This document shows, in pieces, positions 1 through 27,666 of a stretch of 64,000 bases of DNA. The stretch spans positions 496,001-560,000 of the forward strand of contig MU053216.1 of assembly GCA_013239625.1 (NCBI GenBank), written 5' to 3'. Numbering within the stretch: position 1 is the stretch's first letter; each line of letters starts with the position of its first letter. This DNA is from Lama guanicoe (taxonomy: Eukaryota). The position numbers were made by a program, and so were the translations under genes. The notes under the pieces were generated by a model, which saw only the letters and a list, made by a program, of their open reading frames with translations, was not told the origin of the DNA and did not search any database.

Positions 1-83
1 ATTCCCCGACTCAGCCCCTTCCCAGCTTTGGGCCAAGCGTGCAGCCTGCCCTCCCGGCGGGCATAGCAGTGACCAGTGCCGAC

Positions 84-1891
84 TCAGGGCAGCCCGTCCA
101 GGGGCGCGCTGTTCAGACAGTTGTAGAGATAGATGTACTGCTGCTGGGGGCAGACACCGCGAGGACACCGCGAGGGCACAGTGAGGGCACAGCAGGACAG
201 TCTCCCTGTGCCTTCACCTGAGAGCAGTGGTCGCCAATGCCACCTGGCGGCTGCTCCTATGGCGCTGCCCAGAGGCCCCCTGCAGCTGGAGCAGGACCTT
301 CCCTACCCTTCAACCCTTCCCAAGGCTGAGCCCCTGATCGCCTCTCATCAGAGTTGGGATCATGAGGCCACAGGCCTCTGACTGCTGCAAGGCCACGGTG
401 AAGACGTCCACGGTGCACTCAGCTCCTGCCTGCTGCAGCAGCTGGTCCATGGCCAGGAAGGTGCCCAGCTGGGCCGCACCCTTGCTGCAATTGGTCTTGA
501 GTTGGAGGGGGGACCTTAGGGGCAAGGAGGAGGGCCAGGTACCCAGGGAGATGGGAGAACCCAGCCTGGGCCTGGGGACCAGGGAGAGACGCTAGGCACG
601 GCCAGCCAACCCCAGGCCCCAGTAGGATGGGGGCAGATTCCTGAATGATGTCAGGCTGAGTGAGGAGGGGGGCTGTGTCCTTCTAAGCTGGGCTCAGTGG
701 GATGTGAGGCCCTCGGGGAGGCAGTGAGGGGTTCTGCCCACTCCCCCAGTCCCCGTCCAGCAGCACCTGGAGTGGCTGAGCAGCGTGCCTGGCTTCTCCG
801 CTTCCCGGGAGAAGCACTGGCCCACGGTGGCCAGGAAGGGCAGCAGCGTGGCAGCTGGGAGTTCCTGCCCTGGCTCCCCACGGGGAAGCTGCAGCCACTG
901 CACCGGCCTCTCCTTCCTGCTCCCACACTGGGGGCAAAGACCTTGGTGCTGGTGCCAGAAACCGGCTCAGGCCTGCCCTGCGGCCCCACCACCCCAAGCC
1001 CCGCGGCCTGACGCTCACGTGTGTGACGCTGAGGAGGGTGCAGGGCCAGCCTGCCACATTGCTCTCGGCCACCCAGTTCACGGTCACTGCACGCCCCGCG
1101 GTCACCCCTACCCACGATAGGGTGCCTCTCCATGGGCCAGAACTCCTGTGGCCGGGACCAGACACGGCTGCTCAGCCAGGTAACCCCTCCCCGCCCAGTC
1201 ACACCCCACCTCAACTCCTGAGACATCCCACCCCCTGTCCCCTGTCCCCCTCACCTTCTCCTGGACGTCCGGCGGGCACAGGGAGACCAGCACGCGGGCC
1301 CCGTGCTCCCACACCAGCTCCCACAGCTCCTCAGGCCCTCTCGGGCCAGTCAGCACCATGTGGTCGTGGCCAGAAGGCCCGCCCTGCAGAGCGCAGCTGG
1401 TCGGCCCCCCGGACTGAGGTTGTCCTCTGCCCATCTCAGCCCCAGGACCCCCAGATGACCCACCCAGGGAGCACAAACAGCCAGAGGGCACTGTCTTATG
1501 GGGAAGAGCCAGGCTTCGGGCATCTCGCCAAGGGGGCCCTCCTCCGCCGGGGGAACAGAATGGTCGTCTGAGGGACGAGGTGGGGCGTGAGGCTGCCACT
1601 GGTTTCCACCGGCCCAGGTCCCACCCACCTGCACGTCCCCTGAGTGCTCCTGCTCACAGCCAGGAGGGGTCGTAGCAGAGCCGACCTGGTCCTTGAGGGC
1701 CTGGAGCAGGAGCTGGGAGGGCAGAGCTGGTGAGGCTGGCAGGCCGCAGGGGTGCTGGCGGGAGGGCATGCCCCGCGATCACCCCCACTGGCCGGCAGCG
1801 CACCTTGTACTCCCCAGTGAAGCCAGCGTTGGTGTCAGCCGCCCTGAGAGTGCACGCCTGCACGAAGTTCCCCACGGGGATGGGCTGGGGC
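84..1891 (-). pseudogene. PTPRV: PTPRV D2 (pseudophosphatase) domain exons
   Basis: ELWELVWEHGARVLVSL, EFWPME, LLSHSSKGAAQLGTFLAMDQLLQQ and QQYIYLYNCL match rodent OST-PTP D2 as recalled. Two donors read AT and one exon is frameshifted. Confidence 0.85.
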
Positions 1892-2047
1892 CTGGGGGCC
1901 TCGCGGGCAGCACGGGTGCCACCTGAGGCTCCCCAGCTTCCTGTCTTCGCGGCCCTGCTGTGGACAGGAGTCGGCGGCCTGTTGGTGAGAGGGGTGGGCC
2001 CCAGGCCTCTGGCCCCGCCCAACAAGGGCTCCTGGCGCGGCTCGTAC

Positions 2048-5000
2048 CCAGAGGAGCTGGAGGGCCCTTCCAGGACCTTGCTCAGGAGGCAGCTGTGCAG
2101 GAAGACGTACTGGCTCTGGAGGAGGTGGGGAGAGGCCGTCCGCTGAGGGGCTGTGGCCCTGGGGGAAGATTTCCAGGCCCTAACCTGCCACACCCAGCGG
2201 GGCAGGGGAGGGGGCATCTGGGCGGAGACTTCCCACCTCCCCTTTGGCAGAAGGGGAGACAGAAGCCCTGGTGGTCAGGTGACTGAGCCCCTCCCCAGGG
2301 CCCTTTCCTGGCCCCTCCGAGCCTGTGGCCCAGCCGTCTACCCCCATCTCCTCCCAGGGTCCAGCTGCCCGGCCTGGCCAGCTGTGCCCTCACTGGGGTC
2401 TGGATCATGAGGGGCTGGTGCAGCCGCAGTGTGTATGCTGCGTGGAACACGTCCACTGTCTGCTCCTCCTCCAGCTGCCGCAAGAGCCTCAACAGGGCCA
2501 CGAAGGTGCCAGAGCGGCCCACGCCTGCGCTGTGGGACAGAGGCCCAGGGCGGTGAAGGGGAACCCTCCCCGGCCCCCGCACCCCGCTGCCCGCCCTCAC
2601 CTGCAGTGCACCAGGAGGGGCCCCGTGCCCTGGGCGGCCCTGGCCTGCTCCTGGACCAGAGCCACGAAGGCCAGCAGGGAGCTGGGGGTCTCGGGGACGC
2701 CGTGGTCGGGCCAGGTGGTAAACTGCAGCTGCTTCACCCTCCGTGCTGGTTGCTGGGCAGCCTGGGGATGGGGCAGCAGGGGGCTTCACTGTTTCTCCTC
2801 CCCTCCGAACCCAGGACCCCTGCAGCCCTCGCTCCCTTCATCAGAGCGAGGGCAGGCCGGGCCTCCCCACATCCAGAGCTGCCTTTGGGATGATCAGACA
2901 GAGGGCATACCACCCCCGGAGGTCACAGCCTGGGAAGGCGGATGGGGTGCAGGCGTCTGGGGTGAGGCGGGGGCCCCGAGCTGAGCGCGGGGCAGGGCAG
3001 AAACCTCCCCTGCTCAGCCCGCTCTGCCTTGGACTCGCTGTGACTTCAGGTGAACCCTCAGCCTGCCCTGTGCCTCCGGGCCCCTTCCCCAGCCACCAAC
3101 CTCCCCGGGAGGAAGGAAGCCAGGGGACCCAGGAGGTGAGGCCACCTCCCCCAAGGGTCTCCACTCAAATGCCCTGCCTCGCCCCACGGCACACACGTGC
3201 TGCAGCTGGAACTCCCACTTGGTCCACTCCTATTCCGGCTCCTCTGCCAGGAGGTGGACGATGATGTGCCCATGGGTGACGGGGGTGGGGTTGGCTGGCC
3301 AGTAGTGCTCACACAGCACCTACGGCCAGCAGGGGGGCGAGGGGTGAGTGTGAGCCCAGCTTCCTCCCTGCCACCCCTGCTTCATCAGCGCAGCCCTCTG
3401 CCTCCGTCACCCTGCTGAGACGCTGCTCTCTGTGCCACCTGTCCCAGAAGCCTCTCCCTGGACGGGCTCCAGCACCCTCACCCCAGGCCCCTCATGTGAC
3501 CCTTAGCGCTTCCAGGCAGCTGCCAGGCTGCTGTGCAAAGCTCACGGCCTTCCTGCAGGCCTGGCCTGGCTCACTGCCCAACCCGGGGGCTCAACAGGCC
3601 TGCCCCAGGGCCCCTCATGGAGCAGGCCTGGGCGTGTTTAAGGCGATGGTGTCCTCTCTCTGCCTCCCACCCTGGGGCCCTCCTCACCCCCATCGCCTCC
3701 AAATGCCTTTGCCTCCTGGGCTGGGGCGGGACAAGGCGGACACAAGGAGAGACAGCAGAGGCCGTGGACGCTGAGTCTGCCCAAGTCCCTGGTCCCTCTC
3801 CCTGCCCCATCCTGGAAGGCCTGGGGACACCCATCCATCTCCAACCTGACCCACCCTCCTGCCCCGGGCCAGTCCTGCAGGGAGAATCCGCCACCTGGCG
3901 TCCACTCCAGGAACTGCGGTGTGCTCACCCGCCCATTCTCCATGCCCACGGTCAGCATGATGATGATGTGGACCTGCTGCTCCCACACCAGCCGCCAGAA
4001 GTCCTCCAGGGTCTTCTTGAGGGGCCCCTGGGTGACAATGAATTCCTGCCGGTGGGTGTAGCCCTGTGAGGGGGGAGGAACACGTTAACTGGGGCCCCCA
4101 GACCCAGCTGTAAGTGTCCCACGTGTGAGCTTAGGGAGAGAGGACTCCGTGTACAGGCGCACATGTGTGCACACACATGAACACGCGTGCACTGACAACT
4201 TAAGCCAGGAGGGTGTCAGAGACAGCCCCACCGTGAAGGGACAATGACAAGGGACGGACGGGCCTGGAGCAGCCTCCCCAGGCCACCCTCTACACCACCC
4301 CTTCCCACAGCAACCACATGTCTCCTCCAGGTACACCCGAGTCCCCAATCCAGCACTCAGCTCCCCCTCCAGCCAGTCCCAGTCCCCTCTCCTGCCTCGT
4401 CCCCACCCCTCCCAACCCCTGGCTCTTCTCCGGCTTCCTTCCAGCTGCACCATCCACCCCTTTTTCCTCACTTCCAGGATTCAGGAAACCAATGCCCCCT
4501 CTACCAGGAAGTCTTCCTTGATTCCTGGGTCGACTAAACGTTTTCTTCTTCAGTGTGCTCTGAGCACTACACGTGTCCCTTATTACAGCGCTTGCCACCC
4601 CACGTGATGGATGTGACACATGCATACACACACGTCCTCTGAAGCTGGGAACATGAGTGGCCTGGCTCTGCCTCTGGTGGGCCCAGCACAGTGCCCGCAC
4701 AAGGCAGACCCTGAACACATGCCCGTCGTGTTGACCCAAAGAATCACAAGCTGGTGACCCTGGTTGATAGGAGCTGCCCCTACAGCAGGACAGTGTGTCC
4801 CGTGAGGACCCTGAGGGCGGCCCTACCGGGATGAAGCTGGCGTTGACATAGTCAGACTGGGGCTCTCCGTCCAGAGGGGCCAGCCTGACCCAGGAGTGGT
4901 CATCTGAGGACAGGAGAAGCGGTGTGCTCAGCCGGGCGCCTGCAGCCCCTCCCCGGGCCAAGCTCCAGCCCCGCCGCCCATGCCACCTGTACTCACAGGG

Positions 5001-5270
5001 CAGCACGTGTGGGTAGCGGTTCTTGGCAGCGTTGGCTGGGTGCTCGGCCTCCAGCCTGGGCAGCTCCTTGCCCACCTCCTTCAGCTCCTGCAAAGGTGGG
5101 GCCGAGGCAGACCCTTGTGGCCCCCATGCCAGCGAGGGGCAGTGCAGCATGGAGTCCAGGGCCGCGGAGGCCTTACCTCGAACTCCTGGAAGCAAGCCTG
5201 GTGGGCGTGGGCACTCTTGGCCTCATAGCTCTGCCGGAAGCTGTGGGCAGGGATGGGCCGGTGGGTCCGC
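2048..5270 (-). pseudogene. PTPRV: PTPRV D1 catalytic PTP domain exons (interrupted by TAG)
   Basis: Motifs KNRYPHVLPYDH, DYVNASFI, IVTQGP, DFWRLVWEQ, CEHYWP, WPDHGVP, VHCSAGVGRSG and IQTPSQY; in-frame TAG at 3232-3230. Confidence 0.9.
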
Positions 5271-5981
5271 CTGGGGAGAGGGAGGGAGTGGGCAGTGGCC
5301 TGGTGGGTACAGTCCTGCCCTGGGCTCTGGTGGGAGGTGGGCACAGTACCAGGGACCCCAGACCTGGCTGCACAGCCTGGCTACCTGGGCCCCAGCCCTG
5401 AAGTGAAGCCACGTAAAGGAGGTTGTCTGCACACAGCAGGGCCGCCAGCCACCCCGGCAGAAAGGTGGACAAGGGAACAGAGGGGGCAGGACAGACAGGA
5501 CCCCTACGCCCGGGGCCTGCGCACACGTGCTCACAGCGGGAGCTCCGTGTGAGGCCACCAGAAAGAGCAGGGATGACCAGAGGGTAGACGGCAGATCCGA
5601 TGTTGGAGAGAAAGAAGGAAAAGGCAGCGAATTGACCTGAAACCACCCAAGTGGTTAGCCGGGACAAGGTAAGGACGGAAGGCCGGGGGTCTGGAGTAGA
5701 GGCTGGAGGGCCCAGAAGAGCTGGCTGAGGAGGCTGTGCTGGCAGCTGACGCAGGACGTGGCTGGGGGGGTGAGGGGTGCGGTCCCTCAGGATACAGCGC
5801 CAGGCCAGGCGGGGCCGTGCGGCTCAGCTCCCGGTCCAGGGCGGGAGCCCACTCACCACAGGTTGTAAGCAGTCCGCTTCGGGGAACTCAGCTTCTTCTC
5901 CGCCCTGCAGAGGATGAGGGGCCATGGGAGACAGCCCGGGCAGCCTCCTACAGCCCCGCTGCCCCAGCCCCACCCACTCAC

Positions 5982-6108
5982 CTCTGCGCCTTCGCCCGCC
6001 TCCAGTACAGCAGGCCCAGCACCCCACAGAGGGAGAGGACGCAGCCGGCCACGATGCCCACCACTGCAGGAAGGGGCATGGCCGCCTGGGACACACTGGC
6101 CCGGGGCT
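5982..6108 (-). pseudogene. PTPRV: PTPRV transmembrane exon
   Basis: AG/GT-bounded 127-nt exon encoding EPRASVSQAAMPLPAVVGIVAGCVLSLCGVLGLLYWRRAKAQ: a hydrophobic span followed by basic stop-transfer residues. Confidence 0.85.
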
Positions 6109-6380
6109 CTGCGGGAGGCAAGGGGCGGGTGAACCGGGCGACCTCAACCCTTGCCAACCTCCCCTGGACCTGGGACCCTCAGGGTGGAGGGCGCAGCGAC
6201 AGCTCCCCATCCTGCGCAAGTCCCAGGTGCCAAACCGAGGCCAGAGACGGCTGCAGGGGGCCCGTCCTGGATGGGAACTGGGAGTGGCCAGCAGCACCCC
6301 TGCCCCAGCCCCTCCCGGACTCCCTCGAGGCAAAGAAGAGGGCAGGCCTGGCCCCCTGCCTCGTGGCGGGGCTTCTGGAG

Positions 6381-6686
6381 CTGTGCTGTCCAGGACAGTG
6401 GCCGCACGCCCCTTGTGACTACACAGCAGCTCCAAGGTAAGATTTGCTGTGAGTGTCAAATGCACACAGGGCGCCAACGACTTACTGACAAAAAAAGAGC
6501 GTAAAATACCTCATTAATCATTAAAAATGGGTTACATGTTGGTGTGTTATTTTTGATATCTTGGTTTAAATGAAGTGTTACTAAGATTAACTTCAACTGT
6601 TTATTTTTTAACGTAGCTACTGGGAATGTTATTTACATGCGTGGTCCCCACTTGCGGCTGGCCACCGTGTCCACCAGACAGCACTG
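6381..6686. mobile_element. MER33-like hAT-Charlie non-autonomous DNA transposon fossil
   Basis: AT-rich island in a GC-rich intron, with inverted termini ctgtgctgtcc...gacagcactg and degenerate 8-bp flanks ttctggag / ttccagaa. Internal sequence resembles recalled MER33. Confidence 0.7.
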
Positions 6687-9631
6687 TTCCAGAACCTCGG
6701 TGGCCAGGGGCAGCAGGCAGAGGGGGGCATTGCTGGAGGGAGCCAGATCCTGGCAGCAGCAAGCCGTCTCCTCGGTGCCTCCACCCATCCCAGCCCCTCA
6801 GCCCACCCCGGCCAGGGCTGCCACCAGGAGCACCCCCACCTGGCTCTGAGGCCCCAGCCCTGTTCTCCCGCCAGTGGCTGGGGATGAACCAACCCCCTCA
6901 GCACCAACCCCAACCCCCAGGACCCAGCCGGACACCAGCCAAGTGCCACCTACCTGAGAAGGCGGAGAAGGAGACGAGGGTCTCGGGAGGGCTGTGCTGG
7001 GTGAACGCCACGACACTGAACCTGGGGCAGAGGCGCAGGCCCTCCCGCTGGGGCAGAGGCGCAGGCAGCAGGCCCAGCCCTCCCAGGAGACAGGCATGAG
7101 CAGCAGGCACACAGACAGTGTTTCGCCCACACCTATTCGGGGCCCTGAGACTGCACAGCCAGCACCCCTGCGCCTCTTCCTGCCCTATTCTGAGAGCAAG
7201 AGGCCCTAGAAACAGCCACCTGAGTATCCTTGGCATCAAGACAGAATCCATCCCCTTGCTTTGCAGAGGAAAGAACCGTGGAAACAGGTGGGTGTACTCC
7301 TTTTTGCCTTGCCTACCAGGAAGCCCGATCAGAATGACTCTGCGGATGCTTCTGGAGCAGCACATGCTCTCTCTTTGCAACCCAGCCCAGCTCTTTGGTT
7401 GACAGAGGGCATAAACAACCCATAAATGCAACTGTAAAGTTCTCCTCCCATCAGCCTTGGGGTCCCCATCAGTATCCCAGCCTCACCCATACTGGGAACC
7501 TGGCTTGAGCTGCCCGTTACAGATGTCCTGGGTCCGGCTGCAGTCCTCCATCTCCACAGGCACCCTCCAGGAGGTCGGCACAGCCCAGGGCCCGGGGTGG
7601 AAGGGGTTGGCGAGCAGGATGGCCAAGTAGGAGTCGTGTCCTCCATAGCAGTGGTCGTACCACGTGTGGTTGACAGCCTCCCGGGGCGGCTGAGTCACTG
7701 GGACAGGGACCGGGACAGGGAAGGCAGAGAGGGCAGTGGGGCCATGGCCTCGCTCCCCAGCAGAGGGGCTTCCCTGTGTTTCCACGGTGCTCCCACCATT
7801 CATAACACATCAGCCCCATTGTCCAGAATGTTTGGAGCTGCTTCCTGCACCACGACTCACACCGGCCTCAGACATTTCATCCTGCCAAGGTCAGCGCCTG
7901 GACCCCTCACCCACCCCTGCTGGGCAGCAGCCAGGGTCATCCTCCCCCTCTTGTGCCCAGGACTCACGCGACATGTTGGTGGTGGCGATGATGCCATACC
8001 ACTGGATCTGCCCGTCATCCTTGCCAAACATGCCCCGTGTGATCATCACGCCCGTCCCCAAACCGGGCTCCAGCTGGGGCGCTGGGGCCAGCTCTGGGGG
8101 GGCGCCAGGCTAGGGAGGACAGGACAAGTGAGGCCCGACAGTAGCCTCCAAGGGCAGGGCCGCGCCTGCCACAGTGGCTGGCAGATGCCCTGAACCAGAA
8201 CTGGGACCCCTGGGCCAGGCTCCCAGGCGTGAGCCCACAGTGGGCAATCTGCGGAAGGCCAGGGGAAGGGGCTGGAGCTCAGCGGTGCGGATGAGGATGG
8301 AGGAAGACCAAGGGAGCGGGGCTCTGAGGCCGAGGAGGGAGCCTACCCTGGGCAGACGTGGCGCACACCAGGGTAACGGCCCGGCTGCACAGGCCATTGC
8401 TGCCCCGCACAGAGAGGCTGAGGCGGTAGGGAGTGGAGGGCTCCAGGCCAGATAGCAGCAGGGCATCCCCAGAGGTGTCGGTCTGGAAGACTGGTTGGGC
8501 ACTGCTCCCGGCTGCCAGCTGCTCTGCCACCACCAGGCAGGTGTCCACGGCCCCCGGGGGCACTGTCCAGGTCAGGGTCAGACGGGTGGCCTCGGGCCGG
8601 CACTGCACGTCCTCCACGGGGTCTGGCTCTGCAGGTTTGAGGGTTCTGTGTCATGTGGGAGTCAGCGTAGCCCCTGAGGGGCTCAAAATCAGCAGGCATG
8701 GGGGACCAGGCATTTCTGCACCTTGGATGTGGGCAGCGGCCATGTGGGGAAACAAGGTCTCCTCTGGACATGCCGCCCATCCAGAGGGAGGGGGCATTCC
8801 CAGGGCGGTGTGGGCGCAGTGCCCACCTGGACGAGCGGGGTTGGGATAGAATGGACAGCACTCGGGGCACTTTGTCCCCCCCCGACAGGCACCAACATAC
8901 CCACAGGCAGCACCACATGGTGGGTGGAGGCCTGGAGTGGCCCTGCCTGGCACAGCACCGACAGGAAGAGGTTGCGTCCAGGTGTGAGGTCCCTCAGGGC
9001 CAGGTGGGCTTGGCCCAGCACCAGGGGCTGCTCCCGGGAGAGGAGCCCAGCCTCGCAGAGCTGGGCGCGGCACACACCATGCCCCAGGGGGCCGCTGGCC
9101 CAGGCCAGGCTGACCACGGCACTGCCCACCTGCATCGACACAAGCAGCTCAACGGGCACCAGTGGGGCTGTGGGGAGGAGAGCGGTGGCCGCTGACCTCA
9201 CGTAGGACTCAGGGTGCAGGTGAGGAGAGGGACTGGGGGCGCTGCGGTGCCGCTGAAGGAAGGAGCAGAGGTCCCAGAGGAGGGCCTGCCCACCACCCCC
9301 ACCTCGGCCTTCCCCACTCCCACTCACAAGTCCAGCCCGAGGTGTTGGCCGCCGCCCCGCAGAGAGGCCCAGCTTGCGCGACGACCGCCACCTCATACTC
9401 AGTGCCTGGAGTGAGAGCTGAGAAGCTGGCGCTGTCCACCTGCGCCCCCACAGTGCTGGAGCCCACCCGGGTGCCTGCCTGGAACAGGGTCACCTGGTAG
9501 CCATCCCGGCCCCCGGGAGCGTGGACCCAGGATGTCCGGAGCTGGGTGGGGCCTTCACTGGTCACATTTACCACAGGAGGGGCGAGGGGGGCTGTGGGGA
9601 GAGCAGGGTATGTGGGGAGAGGAGCGAGATT

Positions 9632-9940
9632 TCAGGGGCTGAACTGTGTCCCCCCAAAATTCATGTTGACGTTCTGACCCCCAGAATGCGACTATATTTG
9701 GAGGTAAGGCCTTTAAAGGGGCTACTAAGGTAAAACGAGGCCGTCGGGTGGGCCCTGATCCAGGGAGATTAGGACCGACACACCCAGAGGGACTCGGGGC
9801 AGGCGGCCGTCCGCACGCCCCAGAGAGGCCTCAGGCAAAGCAGCCCTGTGACCCCTGGGTCTCAGACCCCTGCTCAGAGCAGTGAGGGTTCCAACGGTCT
9901 AAGCCCCCCACGTGGACTCGGTTCAGGCAGCTCCAGTGAC
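9632..9940 (+). mobile_element. MaLR solo LTR (MLT1A/B-like)
   Basis: ggggctgaactgtgtccccccaaaattcatgttga...tatttggaggtaaggcctttaaag...taaggtaaaacgagg...gtgggccctgatcca matches the recalled MLT1 5' signature. Confidence 0.75.
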
Positions 9941-11122
9941 CAAGGCAGGAGGAGAGAACGCAGACCAGACCTGGGCCCCACCCCCGCAAAGGGCCCCTGC
10001 TCCCCCACCCTTGACCCAGTCGCCAAGCACCGGCTCGGGTGACGAGTGAGAGGAGCTGCCTGCTGAGAAGCAGGCACCTGCCAGTTCCTCCTAGGCCGCG
10101 GGGCCCGAGCCCCCGCAGTGCCGACTGAGCGAGCAGTCACCCCGCCGCCGCTCGCGGACTGCAGGGAGGTCGGGGGCCGTGCAGCCCTGGGGACCCACTC
10201 TCCGTGTGGCCAGTAGGAAGGGCCCGGCAGGGGACACTCACGCGTCCAGCCGGAGGCGTTAGCGCCACTGCTCTCATCCAGTCCCTGCAGGGTAGCCAGC
10301 CACACCAGGAAGGCGGTGCCTGGGGGCAGCCGGGCCCAGGAAAAGCTTTGTGCCTCGGGGGCCAGAGTGTCCTGGCCCTCCAGGGCTGGGGGCCTCAGGC
10401 GGTAAAGCCGCAGGAGGAAGCCATCCCTGCCCCCCCCCCGGTGGGGGGCTCCAGGAAGCACTCAGGACAGGAGGCTGGGCAGCCAGACCCAGGCTCAAGT
10501 TGGCAGGAGGTGCAGGGACTGCAGGACAAGGGGGAGACAGATTTGGGACAACCCAGTCCCTGCCCCTCCTCCCCCACTGTCTGACCCCGCTCGGTGGTCT
10601 CCAAACACAGCAGCCACGGGACTTGGAGCCCACCCTCGTTTCCTCCCCAGGAAAACCTCTCAAAAGACACAGGGCTCCACCCTGACGCCTGCTCCTTGCC
10701 TCCTTCACAAACCATCAGCAACTTGAAGGCGTGACGTCTGATCCACATGGTCCCCAGCCACACCCAACCTGTGTCTCACACCCCTTAGGACCAGGGTCCC
10801 CAGCTCAGCCGACATTCAGCCCCTGCAAGCTCACTCCCTCCCTCTCTCACTCCCCCACCGAGGGCCTGGGTGCACACCTGCCCCCTCTGCCCAGTAAGGC
10901 CCCTCTGCCCACTCTGCTCAGACCCACCTGCTTCTCAGCTCTCTCTCTCCCTCTGGGAAAACATCCCTGACTTCCTAAGGTGGCCCCTCTCTGAACCCTA
11001 AAAGATTAGCCAGAATCACATAAAATTCCCCGTAGTCCTCGATTTTAACCCACGAGAAGAGAGTTTCACGCGGCTCAAGGAGACTGAACACGTTTACACT
11101 ATGACAGGAAAAGCAACGCGCA

Positions 11123-11287
11123 GGGGAGAGCAGAGCTCAGTGTGCAGAGCATGTGCTTAGCATGCGCCAGGGTCTGGGTTCAGTTCCCAGCACTCCATTT
11201 ACAAAAAGTAAAGTTAAATAAATAAGCTTGATTACATGCCCCCAAACAAAAAAGTCAAAAACTACTAAAAGCTGCACAAAAAAAATC
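11123..11287 (+). mobile_element. tRNA-Ala-derived SINE (camelid vic-1-like)
   Basis: ggggagag..agctcagtg (A box), gcttagcatgc, gggttcagttccc (B box), then an A-rich tail containing aattac..cccc-like sequence. Confidence 0.75.
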
Positions 11288-12769
11288 AATACGCGTAAAC
11301 CAACTGTTTGCTGGTCAGCCTTCCCCCGAGACCGCCTGGTTCACAATCTTTAGCTTCAGCACCTAAACCCACACCCAGGAAATGGGGCGCCGGTTACATA
11401 CTTACTGCAGGGATGGCCGTGTGGCTGGCCGCCCAGAGGGCAGGGGAGAGGGAGTGCTTGCAGACAGACTCGGGAAGGGCCCCCGTGGACAGATGCACGA
11501 CCAGACGGAGCACGTGGAGGGCACCGCCCCCGACCCTGCCACCGCTCAGGGTGGGCCTCCCGGAGCTGAAGCCGCAAACTCACGGGTGCAGGCGCCGGCC
11601 CTCTGGACGCTGGAGCTGAGGTTCCCCACCCAGGTCCACACAGACACGGTGTAGCAGGAGCCGGGCACTAGGCCCGTCAGCGTCAGGCTGGAGTGATCTG
11701 AGCCCACATCGACGAGACCACCTGGTGACCTCTGGCTGCCTTCCAAGTGCCAGCTGACCCTGTAGCCTTCCCGCTGCCCCGGTGCTGGGACCCAGCCAAT
11801 GGCCAGCTCAGAGGGGCTGCCCCTGCCAGTGACTTTCAGAGACTGGGGTTCCAGGGATCCTGGAGAGAGAAGCAGTTTGGTAAGGGGGGCATATGATGTC
11901 TGGGGCCCTGTGAAGCCCCTCCCTTTCCTCCTCAGCCCTCCCCCACCTAGGTCTCTACCTCCAAGGCGCAGCCTCCCAGCCCCAAGGCGGGCGACACAGT
12001 GCTGGCACCCACCTGTGTGGCCTGGGAGGCTCTGGGTGGTGTTCCCCAGAGAAGAGACCACGTCCGCCTGGTAGTGGCCCCCAGGCCCATGGAGGGTGCC
12101 CGGGGTGGCACCGGGTGGCACGGAGATGTTTCTGAGAAGGCCTGGGGCTCCCTCGGTGTAGAGCATGGTCTGGCTCCCAGGCCCCCCGCTGGTCTCCTGC
12201 CTGTCCCGGGGCAGCTCAGGGCCGTCACCTTGTCCAGGCTGGGCTGCAGAGTTGGGAGAGGACATGGTCCCTGGAGAGGGAGGATTCACCTGCCTCTTGG
12301 TGCAGGGCCCCGCCCTCCTCCACCCTAGCCCAGACTCACCCTCCAGCCAGGCACTGGCCTGGGCCCAGGCGTCATGGGGCCCGGCCAGAACCCTCAGCTC
12401 CAGAGTGTAGCGTCCGGCTGGCAGGGGTCCTGAGAACGTGGCATTAAGGGCCCTGGGGCCCAGAGTGATGGTCTTCTCCACTGGCCCACTCAGCCTGAGC
12501 AGGTAGCCATCCTGGGCCCCGGGCCCCGCCTCCCAGCTGGCACAGAGCCCTGGGGGCAGGGGCATGAGCAGCAGGTCCAGGGGGGCTGAGGGATCTGTGG
12601 GGAAGGGAGCAGGATGTGACCTGGGCACTGGTGAGAACAGTCCCACCCATATGCAGCTCCCCTCTGTGCTCAGGGCCAGGTCACACCCAGGTGGACACGG
12701 TAACAAATGATAACACATCGAGTGACCGAGTGTGCTGGTGCAAGATCCCACACTCCTCCCAACACCGCC

Positions 12770-13110
12770 ATTCTTGCCCCCTTTAAAGGTGCAGAGACCG
12801 AAGCTCAGAGAGGGTGAGCAATCTGTCCAGAGACCTACAGCCAGTGAGTGGCAGCAGTGGACTCAGAGCCCAGGCGGCCTGGCTCTCCACTCTTCACCAG
12901 CGCCAGACAGCGCTGCTCTGCACAGAAATGCAGCAGAGTCCCTGTGTGCTCAGCCCAGCCTGGACGCTTGTAAGTCTCAGGACCTGGTCCCTCTCTCTGA
13001 ACCTTGGTCCCCTCAACGTAGCAGGGGGATAACAAGACTTACATGGGGCTGTTTTGGAGGGTAAATGAGATGATGCACGGGGCTGGCACACGGAGGGTTC
13101 CAGTGACAGT
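12770..13110. mobile_element. Two degenerate MIR fragments in opposite orientations
   Basis: gcagagaccgaagctcagagagggtgagcaatctgtccagag (reverse core) and ctctctctgaaccttggtcccctcaacgtagcagggggataac...gagggtaaatgagatgatgca (forward core). Confidence 0.55.
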
Positions 13111-16100
13111 AACTGTCACCACGGACATCTCCTGCAGGAGCGCGCTCCCTCCGGGCCACACCCTTCCCTGCAGGGTCCTGGGCCCTCACCCCCCAGCTGT
13201 ACCCTGCCATGTCCCCCTTTTGCTTCAAGCACTCACAGGTCCACTCAGTGGCGTTGGGTCCCACTGTCTGAAGGGGCCCGGCAACAGCTGTGAGCATCAG
13301 CTTATAGGGGGTTCCCGGAGAGAGGTGAGCAAAGGTGTGACTGGAGACACCCCGTCTGATCCCTGCCATCAGGTTGGGGCCACCAAGGAGGTCTGTGAGG
13401 GCGAGATGCAGCCAGGCGGCGCCCCGAGAGCTGTTCCAGGAGGCCTGCAGGGCACTGGTGCCCAGGGCACGCAGCGCCAGCTGACCTGGAGCCTCGGGGG
13501 CTGGAGGGAGAGCCGTGGGCTCGGAGGAAGGGCCCGAACAGTGTCCCAGCAGCCAGAGCCCAGAGGCCGGCTGCGCTGGCACACAGCCCTGCACTGCCCC
13601 CTCCCAGACTGGCTGCCACCTGGGGCCTCGCCGAGTGCTGGCCTAACCTGTCCACTGGTGGGTGCTGGTCTTCGCCTGGAGGTTGGCAGCCCAGGTGGTA
13701 ACCTCCAAAAGGTAAGAGGTCGCTGAAACTGTAGGACAGGGTCCCCGGGGCCACGGAGATGTTATGAGCCACTGCCTGGGATTCCAGGTGGTAGAGGAGA
13801 AGCTGGTAGCCATCCTGCCCACCGGGGGCAGTGCCCCACGAGGCCTCCAGGCTGAACGGGCTCCCAGAGCTGCGGAGCCGCAGGGCCTGGACAGCGGACG
13901 GGGCTGCCCCGGAAGCAGAGGCACCACGTTCGGGGCCAGGGCATCGCCCCTGCTGCTAGTGCTCTGGACAGGCCACTGTGCCAGGCATGGTCCTCGGGCA
14001 CTTCGCCCTCCTTGGCACCCTGTCCCCCGACCCTCCAGGGTGTCCACATCAGTGCCCGCAGCCCCTCCCCTGCCTGCTGGCCAGGCACCTGTGTGGGCAG
14101 TGAGGACGACGGTGGTGTTCTGCCCGCAAGGGTGCAGGGCCGTCACTTCCAGCTGGTACTGACTTCCTGGCACCAGGTCCTGGAACTCAAAGCTGGACGC
14201 ACTGGTGTGGGTCTGGAGCTGCTGCCCTTCGGGGAAGCCCAGGGGGCTCAGCTGGGTTAGACGGAGTATGTGACTGGGACTGCCAGGCCCTGGGGCTGCC
14301 CAGCTCAGAGCGAGGCTGGCGGACGTCCCCTGGCCACTCACGTTCACGGTTGGAGGTGGTCCTGGGGAGAAGGGTGTGTTCAGACGCTCCCCACACACCC
14401 CTTCTGCCCTAAAGAAGGCGGGAAGGCAGGAAAGGCCAGAGCAGAGACAGGGTCTGGGTGGAGAAATGGCCCCGCCCTACTCCCCGCACCCCCAGCAGGG
14501 CTCCTACCTCTGCTCTTCCCGCCTGGACCCCCTTCAGGGAGGGACACTCGTCTTCTTGTGGGGAGGAGGTGGTGGGAGGCTATGGGCAGACGCTATGGGT
14601 CCAGCCAGGATCAGAGACGGCTGTCCTCTCATCTGGCACCCCAGACCTGGCCACGGGGCATCACGCAGGATACCCAAGATGCGGAGGCCGGCAGCTAGGG
14701 GCAGACCACTCTGTCCTCGTCTGGGCTGGGAGGGAGCACCGCTGCCTGAAGCAGACCAGCTGTGGGTCCACGGAGCAGCAGGGGGCCTGGAGGCCTGGGG
14801 AGCAGGGGGTCCCCTCACCTCCCCCACCTCCAGTGCCCACCTAACCTGCGCCAAGAAGCCTCCGAGCCAGAGGAGCGCAGCGAACAGGACCAGGGGCCTC
14901 ATCTTGATGGACAGATGGACAGACGTCTGCAAGGGAGAGCCGCAGGAGGAGCCAGTCCCTCAACCTGCCCCTTGCCCTGGGAGCTGGCAGGCAGGCAAGT
15001 GCGGCTGCGCTGCATCTCAGCAGGGGGCAGGCAGCCTCTCCACCCGGGGCCCTGACCCCACTGCGCCCAGCTTGGCAGGGCCTGGTGAAGGGGGCAGATC
15101 GCAGCTCCCAGGCTGCAGACCAGCTCACCTCTCACTCTGCACCCCCTCCACCCTCTGCCCGCAGGTGGCTTCCCAGGTAAGGACATGCCCTGTGCTGGGG
15201 GTGGGCACACACACAGAGGCAGCTAGCCCCCCAGCTCTCTGCCCCCGGGAGAGGAGGGCCGTCTGACTCTCAACACATGGAGATGGATGGGGCGTTTGTG
15301 TTCCTCTGGGATCAGATCCTGGTGACATTGCCTGGGGGCGCGCTGCTGGGTGCCTGTGTGGATGGACCAGCTGTACATGTGAGCCCCCTTCTGGGTACTC
15401 CTGAGGCCCCACGTGCTGATGGACACTGGAGCACGCCCTAGAGGCCTTGAGTCTCCGTGACTGTAGATCTAGAAAGGCATGTGGCTCCACACCCTCACAC
15501 CCCAGGGGAGGGATAGCCCAGCTGGCCGCAGTGTGAGGAGGGGCTGGACTGGAGCCTGGGACTCCCAGCTCCTCCCAGCAGAGACCGCATCCCACTCCCA
15601 GCCCCCAAGGACGCGTGCTCGCCACCCCCACCTCCCCCACCCAGACTAGCGGTGCCCACGGGCCCTGGCCCTCCTGCCCCCACCTGCTCAAAGGCCCAGA
15701 GCAGCCTTTCTGAGGCCTGGCCTAGAGGTCCCTCTAGCCTGGAGCCAATTACCTCCTGGAAATGCCCCCGCCCCGGCCCCCAGCTGTCACAGGAGGGGAC
15801 AGCAGAGGAAAGGAAAGAGCTCTGGGCCCTGGGGACTCAGGAAGTGAGGAGGGGGACACGCAGCAAACACGCAGGTACAGAAACCGAGCAGCGAGACGGC
15901 TTCTGCGGGAGCTGGTCTCCCTGGGGCCAGTGGGGCTGGGAGCACAGGCCTGCAGGGAACCTGCTTAGCCCCACTCCCACCCGGGGTCCTCCCGCTCCAT
16001 CAGGCCCCGAACCTCAGCGCGCCCGCTGGCCTCCGGACGGGGGCCTGGAAACTCGACCCTGCAGCCCCACCAAGTTTTCCAGGCTGCGTGTGTGTGTGCG

Positions 16101-21332: not shown

Positions 21333-24300
21333 CCCAGCCTCCACCCGACCAGGCACCACCCAAGAAGCACGTGCGGCTGCAGGAGAGGTGAGACCTTCTG
21401 TGGGGGTCCTTCCCAGCCCCCAGCCCTGCCCGCCCCCCCCCACTGCCTCTCCAGCCTGGAAAGGAAGCCAGATGTGCTCATTTGCATGCCCTTTACACAT
21501 CTGGGGCACCAAGTTTGTGCCTGGGCCCCAAACCCCAGGTCAGCTTGAGCAGCCCTGGCGTGGGGGCCTAGAAGGAGGGCCAGGAACGGGAGGTGGGGGC
21601 AGCCGGGCTCAGGGCTGCCTGCTCTGGTGCACATGGGATGGGGCATGGCGGGGCCCTGGGCCAAGGGGAGGACGAGGAGCGGCCTCCCGGGCCCAGAACA
21701 GCCAGAAGGCGGGCGCGAGGGGCTCACCGCCATCCGTGCTGCAGGCGGGGCTCCAACGTCTCTCTGACGCTGGACGTGCGGTCCCTGGGGGCCGTGGAGC
21801 CAGTCTGCTGCGTGAGCACGCCCCGCGAGGTCACCCTGCACTTCCTGCGCACAGCCGGGCACCCCCTCACCCGCTGGACCCTGCAGCACCAGCCGCCCAG
21901 CCCCAAGCAGCTGGAAGAGGAGTTCCTGGTAAGAACGTGGGGTCCCCTGGGAACCACTGCAGCCCCTGGCTTCACCCCATTATGGCCTGCGGGCCTGTGC
22001 CATTTGGGAGCCCTTAGGGAAGAGAGCTCTGGGGCTCCAGGAAAGAGCTCGCCCAGGCTCCCTCTTCCGCCCTCCACCCCATCCAGACCCATGTCTTGAG
22101 GCCAGGAAGGAGTGGCCAGGGCCCAGCTCTGCTAGGCCAGGTGGAGGGAGAGGAGGCTGGGAAGGGGTTGGCTGTTCACTCCTCCCTCCCCTGCCAGAAG
22201 ATCCCCTCAAACTTCGTCAGCCCTGAAGACCTGAATGTTCCTGGCCACGCCTCCAAGGACCGATACAAGACCATCTTGCCAAGTAAGAACTCCAGTAGGG
22301 GCTGGGGGCAGGGCGCAGTCCCTGGGGCCAGAGAAGTTCCGAAGGCAAGACACAAAGCCTCAGCCAGGGAGAGCTGCCTTCGTGGAGCCTCCTCTCTCGG
22401 CCGAGAAATACCCACAGCTGGACCTAGCCGGGGACAAAGGAGCAGCCACAACACCAGGATAAGAACAGGGCAGCACTGTGGCCAGCACTGCCCAGGAGGA
22501 CCCCAGGAAGTTGATCTATGGTGCTATGATCCACATTTTACACATGAGGAAACTGAGTCACAGAGAAGTTGAGTAACTTGCCCAAGGTCACACAGCCAGT
22601 TGAACCAAACCTTCTTCCCAGCTCAGGTTTGCAGGGGAAGAGGCCCCATCAGGATGGGCCTGCAGGAGAGGGCTCTGAGAATCCCGGGCGGAGGCAGGGC
22701 AGCGCTGGCGAGAGGACAGTGGCAAGACTGGAGCTGTGAGGGGTCGAGCCTGCAGGCTTGACACACCCAGGGTCAGATCCTCTTTTATTTCAGAGACAGG
22801 TGTGGGATCCTCCGGCCATGAGACCCAGGGAGACTCTCTCCCATCCAAGCAGCCTTATCTGGCTAACCCGCCTCCAGCAACCTCGTCTGGAGGCTGCAGC
22901 CCCCTGACTTGCCTGTTCTGATCTTCCCAGTGTCCTCGCCCTCTGCTGCCTGGGCTGATCAAGGGGCTGGACCCCAGGTACACTCTGTCCAGACCAGCTG
23001 GCCCTGGGGAGCCGGTCCCCTCTCCTTTCCCCCACAAACTAGCTTCATCCGGCTTAGACTTGGAGAAAGGCCTCCCCTTGGAAGAAAAGGCTAACATGCC
23101 CTGTGGCGGAATGAAGCCTGAGTCTGGGCCCAGGCGTGACTTTGGTTAAGTCGCTCATCTGAATCCCGTGGTCACCATCAGGACAAATTCTCCCTGCACA
23201 GCACCTCTCTCCCTGTTCCTCGTGGTCCAGCCCTCTTCCGCACCTCGCTATCTCCAGACTAGCATTCAGGGCTGCCCTCTCCTCGCTAGGCCGCCCCGCC
23301 CAGCACCACCCCGTTAACCTTCCCAGCTACTGCTTGGGTCACAGCACTCCACTGCTCAGGATCATTCTGTGGCTCCCTACTGTCTGCACATGAAATAATC
23401 CCACAGGCATCGGGCCAGCTGCTGTACACAGGGACCACGCAAGCCCGGCACACTCCTCTTCCCACCTTTGACCTGTGGCCCTGCTGCTTTTCATTTCCTA
23501 GACCCCCAGAGCCGCGTCTGTCTGGGCCGGGCACAGAGCCAGGAGGACGGGGACTACATCAACGCCAACTACATCCGGGTGAGTCACTGGCAGGGACGGG
23601 ATGGGGGGGCCGTGTCCCGAGACCCCCCAGGACGCTTCCCAGTGTGGCTGGAGGTTTGGGCTCCCTGTGTCTGGGCTCCAACCCCCCCGCTGCCATGGCC
23701 CGGGGCCGAGCCTCCAGGCCTCCAGGCCTCCAGGATGCCCCCTGGGAGCACAGAGCAGACATCAAATGATGCTGGAATTAGACCTCTGGTGCCCTATGTC
23801 CACCCTGTCAGCCTGCCCCTGCCAGCCTCTCAGCATGGAAGGCAGCACGGTCCAGCCCCCTTGACTCCCAGGTCTGCGCGGGAGCATGCGGCCGGCCCCT
23901 TCTCCCTCTCTCTCTCCCTCGCTGCTCCTCACGCGGCCCCTCCTTTGTGGAGGCAGAGGGCCACCAAGGTCGACTTACTCAGTCACAGGGAGCAGGTGGC
24001 CAGCAGAGGCGGGAGGCAGTGGGTGTGAGGGCAGTGCCCTCTGGCGGCTCAGAGTGGGTAGCACAACGGCCGGGTGCAGGGAGGCGACCAGCCCTCGCGC
24101 CTGGGGACACATGGTCGCCCATCTGCCTGTGGAAACCAGGTGAACGGGGGTCTGGATTTCACTGGCTCTGGAGGGTGGGGAGCTGAGGATTCTGAAGGGG
24201 AGAAGAAAAGGCTACATCTTGCTACTAAACATACAAAGTAACACGTAAGTGTGAAACTTCCACTCAACAAGTGTTGCCCTGCCTTCTCCGCACTTTGTAG

Positions 24301-27300
24301 ATGGCAGCGAGCGGGGGAGGGGACGGACGTCACAGAGGCCCTGGCCCTCAACACACTCTGCCGAGTGTCGCCCGCACCTCACACCCGCTAGAAACTGCCC
24401 CTGATTTGCAGGCAAGACGCTGGGGGCTGTCGGCAGCAGAACCAGGCTTTGAAGCCAGGTGCCCCTCACTCGGACACGCGGCTGCCGGTGTGCGCGTCTG
24501 TGCTCCTGTGCGTCCAGGGGCGCACGCTCCCCGACCTCAGCCTGACCCCAACCTGCAGCCCCTGGGCTCTGGCCTCACCGCCCACCTTCCTCCGTGCCTC
24601 TGCCGCAGGGCTACGGCGGGAAGGACAGGGCCTACATTGCGACCCAGGGCCCCATGCCCAACACCGTGTCGGACTTCTGGGAGATGGTATGGCAGGAGGA
24701 GGTGAAGCTCGTCATCATGCTCACTCGGCTCCGAGAGGGCAAGGAGGTAGGCGGCCAGGGCGCTGCCCCCAGTGAGCCCAGAAATGGCTGCACCCCGCCC
24801 CAATGCAGTCAGCCTTGCTCCGGGCAGCTCAGGACACCTGTACACCCCAAAATACACCACCTGGAGGCCAGCCACAGCTGCGGAGGCGGGGGCACTTTAT
24901 CTGCAGGTGTCAAGCTCTAGCTGGGGTGGACATGGTGGGGGACCCCATTCCCCTCTCTGCTGCCCTGGTCCCCACTCCAGCCCACAGACCCTCCCCCTCT
25001 GACTCCCAGATCCCTCCCTCCCAGAAATGTGTCCACTACTGGCCCACAGAAGAGGAAACCTACGGGCCCTTCCACATTTGCACCCAAGACGTGAGAGAGT
25101 GTTCAGAATACACTGTGCGGCAGCTCACTGTCCAGGTACCTCTCTGGTTCGCGGGGACGTCGGGACACCCCTTAGCCTCTGGGACCCGGGGCCGACCTCC
25201 ACTGAGAGTCAGGGGTTTGCTTGCCCAAACCTGCTGGAATTCACACCTGAAAGATGCCCTTGAGGCCCAGAGAAAGAGGGACAGGGATGCTGTCCTCAGG
25301 GAGCCTCTGATTCCGCGGGACAGTGCCAACAAGCCACATGGGCACCTGTGCCAAAGAGCCAGGAGGAGGGCGGGGGTGCTCCAGTGGTCAGTGGTTTGCA
25401 CAACAACGTGCAGAAGTGCCTAGAAGCTCGCCTATTACCGTGGAGTGTCTCCTACTCCTCAAAGCACTTCTCCATGGAGTCACTGTCCTCAGAGCATCAC
25501 TGTCCCCATTTTCAAGGTTAAGGACTCGAACTTGGGTCTCACCCTCCCCTCATACTGTTCCCTCCCCACGTTTCAGAGGAGGGAGTGGTCGAGCACCTTG
25601 GGCAGGACAAGGCTGGTTCTCTGCTCGGGGTCCATGGCTGCGCCGGGTCACTCAGCCCTGGCACCAGAGAAGGTGGACAGCGCCTTCGTCCTGTTCCCAG
25701 TTCTCATGCCTTGTCCCCTCCCAGTACCAGGAGGAGTGCCGGTCTGTGAAACACATCCTCTTCTCGGCCTGGCCTGACCACCAGACCCCAGAATCAGCTG
25801 GGCCCCTGCTGCGACTGGTGGCCGAGGTGGAGGACAGCCCAGAGACAGCGGCCAGCACGGGGCCCATCGTGGTCCACTGCAGGTACGTGTCCCCTCTGCG
25901 GCAGCCCTTCCCTCCCACTGGGCCTCTCCTAGGAAGGGTCTAGGCAGAGCGGGGCCGGGCAGGCCCAGTTCTCACCTGGACAGGAACCTCTAGGTCATTA
26001 AGCAGGCACTTCTCTCTTTCTTCCTGCTGCAGAACCTGGACACCCGGGCACAGTCCAGAGAAGCAGCTCCCATTAAGCTGGGGGAGGAGAGGGACATGGT
26101 GTCGGGACCTCATCTATTCATCTCCCACACATCTACTGAAAATCTCATTGCCAGGTGCAGTGTTAGGTGCTAAGGAGACAGCTGTGAACAAGGCAGGCTG
26201 GTGGGGAAGATGGCAGATAAACGAACAGGTGATGAGAGAATGATGTGGGTGTGGGGCACAGGACCAAGTCACCTAACTCAGATTTTGACGAGAGAAGGTC
26301 TTTCAGGAAAAGGGACCTCCAAGCCAAGCTAAGACCTGGAAGATGAATTAGCCGAGGGTAGTGGAGGGGAGCCTCCCAGGCAGGCAAAGCAGCACGTGCA
26401 AAGGTCCAGAGGTGCAGTTCAGAAACTGATGGGTTGCTGAGAGTGGAGTTAGAGAATGCAGGCCTGGGGGCCGTGGGGGGACAGGGATGAGAGACGAGGC
26501 TGGAAGGCAAGTGCAGGCCCACTGATGAGGGGGCTTGCGGGACTGGCCAAGAAGCCTGAATTTGCCATTTAAAAGAATACTTAAGCCACAAGCAAAAAAG
26601 TGGATTTGGGGGAGATGCAGGGGGCAGATTTAAAATAAGGAAAACATTTGGGAGTGCATACCCTAAACAGAAGGCAGAGCCCAGGGCACAGACAGAGCGT
26701 CTGGAACCTCTGCCCCACAGGGGACACCTGGACACAGTGAGGGGGTCAGGAGTGGCTCCCATCAGCCGTCCACATGGGAAGACTTCTCACGGGAGGGGAT
26801 CCTGAGAAGACTTTGGAATCAAGGGCAAGACAGACTGGAGGAGAGAGACTGGGCAGGACTGAGGGGGCCACGGGAGCATGAGCAGCTGTGAAGACGAGTG
26901 ACCACTAGGGAAGGGGCCCCATGTGGGCGCTGCCGGCTGGAAACCGCTATCTACCGCCCGTCAAAATGTCCCCAGGGACCGGAGGGTGACCTGGGGTAGG
27001 TCTAGAGTGGGGCTGTGAGGAGCGTGACCTCCTCCAACGCCAGGCTCAGCCTGTGCAGGTAGCACTACTTCCCCCCACGCCATGCCCGGATAGAGTGCCC
27101 TTGGTCCCTACCACCTTCTCTATAGTGTGGGGCCTGCTCCCGGCCTGCCCGGCCCCCTGTGACCTCCCCACCCTCCTCTGGCTACACCCAGTGCAGGGAT
27201 CGGCCGCACCGGCTGCTTCATCGCCACCCGAATTGGCTGCCAGCAGCTGAAGGCCCGAGGGGAGGTGGACATTCTGGGCATCGTGTGCCAACTGCGGCTG

Positions 27301-27666
27301 GACAGGTGGGTCCGTGCACGTCACCGGGACTGAGACACGAACAGGGGCACCGATGCCTCTCGGGGGCCGAGTACCCACAGGTGCGGCGGCACCTCCCGTG
27401 AGACAGGAAGGGCTCTTTTGCTTAAAGAGATGCTTCTTCTGCAGCTCACGGCCAGAAAGGCATCTCTACCTAGAACTTCAGCTCTCTGGGGGGCCTAGAG
27501 GTAGGCCCCTCCCATAGGATGCCGCCGCCTGAACAGACCCCTTGCTCACAGTCTGGGTGCCTCTCCCCACAGGGGGGGCATGATCCAGACGGCGGAGCAG
27601 TACCAGTTCCTGCACCACACCTTGGCCTTGTACGCTGCCCAGCTGCCGGAGGAGCCCAGCCCCTGA
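21329..27666 (+). CDS. PTPN7: Tyrosine-protein phosphatase non-receptor type 7 (HePTP), 339 aa, 9 coding exons
   Basis: Exons 21329-21387, 21745-21928, 22198-22282, 23502-23578, 24609-24746, 25025-25135, 25725-25882, 27192-27305, 27573-27666 (1020 nt, all GT-AG, phases consistent). [58 protein letters not shown], ending PEEPSP*. Confidence 0.97.
22500..22620 (-). mobile_element. MIR SINE fragment
   Basis: cattttacacatgaggaaactgagtcacagagaagttgagtaacttgcccaaggtcacacagc is the MIR core in reverse. Confidence 0.8.
26110..26580 (-). mobile_element. L2 LINE 3' fossil
   Basis: catctattcat...ccaggtgcagtgttaggtgctaaggagacagctgtgaacaag...gcacgtgcaaaggtccagagg is a typical antisense L2 3' end. Confidence 0.65.

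Follow-up and report, generated by a model that had tools for sequence, protein, structure and literature searches.

The guanaco genome examined here, that of a South American camelid, very probably holds no working PTPRV. This gene, also known as OST-PTP or Esp, encodes a phosphatase of bone and testis that dampens the action of insulin in mice, and the Esp-null mouse was a founding experiment behind the model of bone as an endocrine organ. In the guanaco (Lama guanicoe), the single syntenic copy lies within a 64,000-nucleotide stretch of contig MU053216.1 (assembly GCA_013239625.1), hereafter the window, and is broken in that assembly at ten places. The prion and doppel proteins are identical to those of alpaca, which narrows the probable camelid of the first pass to a South American one and rules out Camelus as the source. 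There is little doubt that this is a gene predicted to be inactive, that its loss was likely a separate event from the one behind the human pseudogene, and that it dates to about 4–9 million years (My) ago by a crude clock.

The PTPRV locus

The gene occupies the minus strand from 14902 to 84, and the 33 coding exons that a first-pass annotation had recognised are all in place, from the ATG at 14902 to the TGA at 84:

84..14902, minus strand: PTPRV unitary pseudogene, 33 coding exons, raw spliced length 5163 nt
14846..14902, minus strand: exon 1, signal peptide, start ATG at 14902
8347..14361, minus strand: exons 3–12, fibronectin type III (FN3) ectodomain (Pfam fn3 on exons 3, 5, 10 and 12, the four FN3 exons tested)
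5982..8109, minus strand: exons 13–16, membrane-proximal segment and transmembrane helix (Pfam PTP_tm on exon 14; alignment)
2048..5270, minus strand: exons 18–25, catalytic D1 phosphatase domain (Pfam Y_phosphatase on exons 21, 23 and 24)
84..143, minus strand: exon 33, final coding exon, with the TGA stop as in orthologues
21745..27666, plus strand: PTPN7/HePTP neighbour, 8 exons, open and canonical (synteny and assembly-quality control)
41321..45291, minus strand: GPR37L1 neighbour, 2 exons, open 479-aa frame (synteny and assembly-quality control)

The exons span 99% of the read-through aligned to the pig protein P0002, and GT/AG is found at 60 of the 64 splice dinucleotides. The read-through is 76.8% identical to pig and 65.8% identical to Mus caroli. 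Both catalytic motifs are intact, as had been claimed: WPD lies at 2713-2705 on the minus strand, and HCSAGVGR is unbroken in sequence, its codons being divided by intron 23 as HCS / AGVGR. The domains (FN3 ectodomain, PTP_tm, transmembrane helix and PTP domain) and the top matches identify an orthologue of PTPRV, an R3 receptor PTP; 21 of the 24 protein-search matches are named PTPRV, two are unnamed and one is a fish PTPRB (30%). A tree from a quick search places the gene as a basal artiodactyl, with pig and ruminants (SH-aLRT 100). Exon 23 searched against the PDB gave no matches.

One flank of the locus holds PTPN7, ARL8A and GPR37L1, while an LGR6-like exon 1 stands about 8 kb away on the other, all four being names that we presume from the sequence. 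The arrangement agrees with the order LGR6 - PTPRV - PTPN7 - ARL8A - GPR37L1, which we take to be that of human, and synteny thus joins domains, matches and tree in bearing out the initial assignment to PTPRV. In a genome search, this locus is the only match to exon 3 DNA, to the exon 23 protein sequence and to an FN3 fragment from whale. A pig PTP fragment is 76-83% identical here and at most 67% identical at the remaining 33 of 37 genomic places. No intact second copy was found elsewhere in the assembly, which may be incomplete. Because the copy is single and syntenic, a dead duplicate of PTPRV is ruled out; the retained introns, the ten lesions and the single copy support describing it as a unitary pseudogene.

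Ten disabling lesions

The lesion frames were compared with 18 mammalian PTPRV models. The calls come from one assembly only, and the indel sizes are net values derived from orthologous proteins rather than orthologous DNA. At least eight lesions of varied kinds had been anticipated; ten are counted in the assembly, made up of five frameshifts, one nonsense codon and four dead splice sites:

14556..14557, minus strand: exon 2 acceptor reads AA
14528..14532, minus strand: exon 2 G5 run, 1 base missing, frameshift
13710..13711, minus strand (at 13711/13710): exon 4, net 14-nt deletion, where orthologues carry PGSEYALEV
12253..12254, minus strand: exon 7 acceptor without its G, possibly rescued by the in-frame AG at 12245-12244, 9 nt downstream
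10430..10439, minus strand: exon 9 G10 run, net +4; homopolymer, possibly an assembly slip
8096..8102, minus strand: exon 13 C7 run, net +1; homopolymer
3230..3232, minus strand: exon 22 nonsense TAG (codon 1284 of the read-through), preceding both WPD and the catalytic Cys
1498..1499, minus strand: exon 28 donor reads AT
1088..1112, minus strand: exon 30, three orthologue codons replaced by 25 nt, net +16
347..348, minus strand: exon 32 donor reads AT

Three of the ten fall in homopolymers and seven outside them. The junction between exons 27 and 28 may hide an eleventh, but was left uncounted because it can be read in frame with available GT/AG sites. Whereas PTPRV shows four kinds of lesion, the two neighbouring genes of the same GC-rich window show none, neither in the eight PTPN7 exons (961 nt) nor in the 479-aa GPR37L1-like frame.

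Constraint and the timing of the loss

Positions that are otherwise invariant offer a protein-level proxy for relaxed selection. The guanaco-window PTPRV has altered 21 of 408 such columns, where pig shows changes in 11 of 410 and oryx in 9 of 409, a modest, roughly twofold excess. Higher or similar scores in cattle (17/399), deer (37/407) and reindeer (25/392) are likely due to poor models. Private changes number 16, against 9 in pig and 6-8 in ruminants, and CpG transitions could account for 5 of the 16. The overall protein rate exceeds that of pig at the 5% level with one of four outgroups only, and is lower than that of ruminants.

A clock that uses a simple model of mutation with assumed rates gives point estimates of 4.0-9.4 My for the loss (range 2-16), in keeping with the first-pass view of a fairly recent event. 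The gene would have been drifting neutrally ever since. Could a single loss nevertheless predate the Camelini-Lamini split, in the common ancestor of all living camelids, and not belong to the llama-alpaca stem? The point estimates are younger than that split, which is placed at 11-25 million years ago (PMC4884201), yet the upper limit of 16 My overlaps its range. No camelid PTPRV protein occurs among the 24, 114 and 27 matches of the protein-collection searches, although the collection includes Camelus proteins; Camelus may therefore have lost the gene in the same event or in a separate one. Missing entries in a protein collection are, however, not a sequence comparison, and we regard a camelid-wide loss as quite possible though short of probable. 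Were it true, the date would change but not the independence from primates. Twelve short proteins considered as camelid PTPRV were set aside, being at most 90% identical to the window. The missing Camelus proteins are compatible with an older, camelid-wide loss barely within the limit of the clock.

Glucose physiology

Camelids handle glucose in an unusual way, secreting less insulin and being insulin resistant (PMC11436879), and in Esp-null mice glucose is low and insulin high (PMC3257050); one might ask whether the loss was adaptive and linked to camelid glucose physiology. This we consider unlikely: the camelid phenotype runs in the opposite direction, no obvious metabolic trait is common to the other lineages with broken-looking models, and the hormonal role of osteocalcin is in dispute. 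Indeed, the mouse osteocalcin hormone axis itself is disputed, two independent osteocalcin knockouts being without glucose phenotype. In the guanaco genome, osteocalcin is not among 13 Gla-domain matches, and 15 class C GPCR sites were found without GPRC6A being singled out among them.

Relaxed selection through redundancy is a simpler reading than a rewired axis. The loss would be tolerated because PTP1B and TC-PTP also act on the osteoblast insulin receptor, as has been proposed for humans (PMC8799702).

Consequences for the product

Broken at ten places, PTPRV is predicted to yield no active phosphatase. With the orthologous junctions its frame ends at codon 41, and with the most permissive alternative exon 1-2 splice it stops at codon 279; the further stop at codon 1284 precedes both the WPD loop and the catalytic cysteine. 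Transcripts, if any, would be substrates of nonsense-mediated decay, and skipping of exon 22 (123 nt, in frame) would delete 41 residues of the catalytic core. A word-share comparison covered 24 sequencing runs. Fourteen DNA runs with five organism labels gave 0.82-0.98, shares that cannot resolve single lesions; three reproductive-system RNA runs gave 0.24-0.27, where 0.36 is the maximum possible for a fully spliced transcript, and seven further rows gave 0.20 or less. None of these shares enters the argument as evidence.

The stretches left open (exons 14-21 and 23-27) and the two unaltered catalytic motifs might speak for a locus that still has a useful product, whether a protein shortened by truncation or exon skipping or a non-coding RNA with a function in reproductive tissue. 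We hold this to be very improbable, since the stops at codons 41/279 and 1284 part the open blocks from the motifs, unaltered motifs are expected at about 1% divergence, and invariant residues of the catalytic domain are altered (R1188W, R1289W and R1387Q). Least credible of all is a working gene in this species, with the lesions reflecting assembly errors or a private haplotype: the single assembly is fragmented (55,231 contigs), the GC content is 65% and three lesions lie in homopolymers, but seven do not, among them the 14-nt deletion, the net 16-nt insertion and the nonsense codon, while the neighbour genes are free of lesions, conserved residues are eroded and an alpaca PTPRV protein is absent from the searched collection.

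Probable independent and repeated loss

Full-length HCSAGVGR models, none containing X, exist for pig, oryx, musk deer, takin, cat, bear, elephant, loris and mouse; the lineages with full-length models between camelid and human are pig, ruminant, carnivore, loris and tree-shrew. Full-length PTPRV in pig, ruminants, carnivores, afrotheres and loris makes it likely, from these protein comparisons, that the camelid loss is separate from the human one. Several other models are fragmented or partly out of frame, namely those of gray whale (P0146, P0152, P0155), black rhino (P0113), Pteropus (P0076, P0098) and naked mole-rat (P0112), with altered motifs in whale (RPD, and no HCS), rhino (LPD) and Pteropus (WAD). 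As the whale, rhino, fruit-bat and colobus models look broken at other places than the camelid gene, they suggest repeated loss, and the camelid case is probably one among several in placental mammals. Of the convergence first proposed, independence from primates is supported, but this is probably not a lone convergence with humans. No claim is made for canids, fox and wild-dog models retaining HCSAGVGR while dog and raccoon-dog models diverge there.

We lean towards the view that PTPRV, far from being a rodent gene missing from humans alone, was inherited from ancestral mammals, that most orders have kept it, and that it has gone through at least four or five independent losses (anthropoids, South American camelids, whales, rhinoceros and fruit bats), with possibly two of them in camelids. 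These losses would form a natural Esp knockout panel whose camelid member is insulin-resistant, opposite to the mouse knockout. No report of a non-primate loss was found in the literature covered, and Ptprv is absent from the nine supplementary files of a mole-rat gene-loss paper (PMC8851862); subscription journals, bioRxiv supplements, mouse-referenced TOGA tables and RefSeq pseudogene records lay outside the search and may list one. PTPRV losses would escape screens based on human protein-coding genes. Unitary gene loss is ordinary as a phenomenon, and the camelid case comes without a demonstrated phenotype. Since ESP is a pseudogene in humans, doubt has been cast on what the Esp-null mouse means for people (PMC3257050). 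A second, recent loss in an insulin-resistant domestic animal, together with pig and ruminant relatives that keep the gene, allows a comparative test of the osteoblast insulin-signalling brake beyond mice, for which pig or sheep could serve as models with an intact gene and alpaca as a null resembling humans.

Comparison with known systems

Human PTPRVP, listed as a unitary pseudogene by Zhang et al. 2010 (PMC2864566), resembles the camelid gene in its orthologous locus, its introns and the lack of a working paralogous copy, but belongs to a separate lineage. For primates the comparison used a colobus protein model (P0097); this model is in frame at the exon 9, 13, 22 and 30 sites and retains the residues missing from camelid exon 4. 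The pig PTPRV-like protein (XP_020920200.1, P0002) and mouse Ptprv/Esp share with the camelid gene the same FN3-PTP_tm-transmembrane-D1-D2 layout and the same motifs, with open frames of about 1700 aa as against its ten lesions. For whale, rhino, Pteropus and mole-rat the evidence consists of automatic protein models, whereas for the camelid it is lesion-level DNA; the whale model reads across the exon 22 and exon 30 sites, both of which are broken in the camelid.

Structure and identity of the locus

PTPRV was defined by reading window positions 1-15100 in six frames and by tblastn with the pig protein, which together gave a minus-strand gene of 33 coding exons, 60 of their 64 splice dinucleotides being canonical.

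14902 to 84, minus strand: PTPRV, from ATG to TGA
8347, minus strand: end of exon 12
about 11120-11290: SINE in intron 8, tRNA-derived with an A-rich tail, which we take to resemble the camelid Vic-1 family

With an X placed at each break, the exons translate into a read-through of 1718 aa with unchanged WPD and HCSAGVGR motifs, and the top match among 53 models is the pig PTPRV-like protein P0002 (XP_020920200.1; 76.8% identity, 99% of the read-through length). Exon 3 alone retrieved 24 matches, 21 of them PTPRV-named (best 74%), Pfam hits to fn3, PTP_tm and Y_phosphatase follow one another as expected, and a quick-search tree of 23 sequences placed the read-through as sister to pig and ruminants (support 100).

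In this assembly, the locus is a unitary pseudogene. A dead duplicate is ruled out by the single PTPRV locus found in genome searches, by the other PTP matches (at most 67%), and by the neighbors, presumably PTPN7, ARL8A and GPR37L1 upstream and, downstream at a distance of about 8 kb, the first exon of an LGR6-like gene. The prion and doppel proteins of this genome are identical to Vicugna pacos records, Camelus doppel forming separate members of the cluster, which identifies the animal as a South American camelid. Elsewhere in the genome, a PRRG-type Gla exon occurs in a second, degenerate copy (L016, G000:C12520:19852015-19852125), which is near-identical to L008 and likely a processed pseudogene.

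Disabling lesions

The first-pass annotation counted at least eight lesions, correctly: comparison with orthologues yields 10, namely five frameshifts (sizes derived by protein comparison), one stop and four non-canonical splice sites.

Lesions of PTPRV, by comparison with orthologues
Exon 2: frameshift, -1
Exon 2: non-canonical acceptor
Exon 4: frameshift, -14
Exon 7: non-canonical acceptor, in-frame alternative present
Exon 9: frameshift, +4
Exon 13: frameshift, +1
Exon 22: stop, TAG
Exon 28: non-canonical donor
Exon 30: frameshift, +16
Exon 32: non-canonical donor

All were read from one assembly, and three of the 10 lie in homopolymer runs. The same window, at 60-68% GC, also holds eight exons of PTPN7 (961 nt) and both exons of GPR37L1 (479 aa), all of which have open frames and canonical splice junctions. 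Words from the locus occur in 14 DNA runs under five coded organism labels (shares 0.82-0.98), a measure too coarse for single lesions. The exon 27/28 junction (1712-1500), orthologue-like in length and poorly matched in sequence, is possibly a further lesion; a donor at 1628 is stronger but frame-shifting.

If splicing uses the orthologous junctions, the frame ends at codon 41. Another exon 1 donor (14846-14841, 5 nt downstream) together with a new AG at 14554 (1 nt into exon 2) would bring exons 1-3 into frame; with the sole in-frame alternative for exons 1-2, the exon 4 deletion leads to a stop at codon 279. For an internal start, the exon 22 stop (codon 1284) precedes both the catalytic Cys (1349) and WPD (1312). 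The gene is predicted to make no active enzyme, and transcripts would undergo NMD. Three RNA-seq runs labeled reproductive system hold 0.24-0.27 of the words sampled from 7400-14950 (ceiling 0.36 if fully spliced); transcription of the pseudogene may persist in that tissue, DNA carry-over being possible in these runs.

PTPRV in other mammals

Among the best-seeded candidates scored, a search with the pig sequence gave 114 proteins, of which 97 are named mammalian ones. Full-length models exist in pig, several ruminants, carnivores, eulipotyphlans, afrotheres, xenarthrans, rodents, lagomorphs, tree shrew and loris, and no protein above 900 aa contains an X. Camelids branch below pig and ruminants, both with full-length models, which argues that their loss is distinct from that of primates. 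Together with the loris model, this upholds the earlier proposal of an independent, non-primate loss, which we consider likely.

Among the best-seeded candidates, protein searches found no camelid, hippo, horse or microbat PTPRV. Whale PTPRV consists of three fragments only (gray whale P0146, P0152, P0155), with RPD in place of WPD and no HCS. Broken-looking models come from rhino (P0113, 55% identity), Pteropus (P0076 and P0098, WAD motif), colobus (HCSVGMSR and WPN) and naked mole-rat (P0112, 65% coverage); a second mole-rat model, P0142, is also fragmented or motif-damaged. Where readable, the whale and colobus models pass through the sites broken here. The whale, rhino, Pteropus and mole-rat models may mark further independent losses, and these automatic models, from the best-seeded candidates scored, tip the balance slightly toward repeated loss among mammals. 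Four canid models (P0058, P0074, P0084, P0086) are without exon 2-3 sequence, and the fox branch is long (0.34), possibly through relaxed selection or poor annotation.

Age of the loss

Of the columns that do not vary across 34 non-artiodactyl mammals, the read-through is changed in 21/408, pig in 11/410, oryx and takin in 9/409 each and musk deer in 13/409, the cattle, deer and reindeer models being higher than these four species; private changes number 16, against nine in pig. Taken together with one stop and three splice substitutions, these column and private changes put neutral divergence at 0.009-0.013 changes per site (95% range 0.004-0.023), or 4-9 My (2-16) at 1.4e-9 per year (PMC7331169) or an assumed 2.2e-9. 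In relative-rate tests the overall rate is not clearly raised, as expected of a recent loss. Given splits of Lama from Vicugna 2-3 Mya (PMC7331169) and of Old from New World camels 11-25 Mya (PMC4884201), the best fit is a loss on the llama-alpaca stem. PTPRV may instead have been lost once, camelid-wide, which would account for the missing Camelus proteins.

Physiology and known losses

Mouse OST-PTP dephosphorylates the osteoblast insulin receptor, PTP1B and TC-PTP acting similarly (PMC8799702). Redundancy with these two would therefore be the most probable explanation for why the gene could be lost. Esp-null mice are hypoglycaemic (PMC3257050), whereas camelids are insulin resistant with lower insulin secretion (PMC11436879); the loss therefore does not explain the camelid phenotype. 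The first-pass framing of a rewired axis is weakened by two newer osteocalcin knockouts, described without a glucose phenotype (PMC7255615 and PMC7255595).

No paper on PTPRV loss in camelids or other non-primates was found in the open-access literature, and genome-wide loss tables may already contain the camelid case. Judged from the genome sequence, the camelid loss is very likely real, well supported, apparently unreported, and, next to the human pseudogene already known (PMC2864566), a gene loss of a familiar kind.
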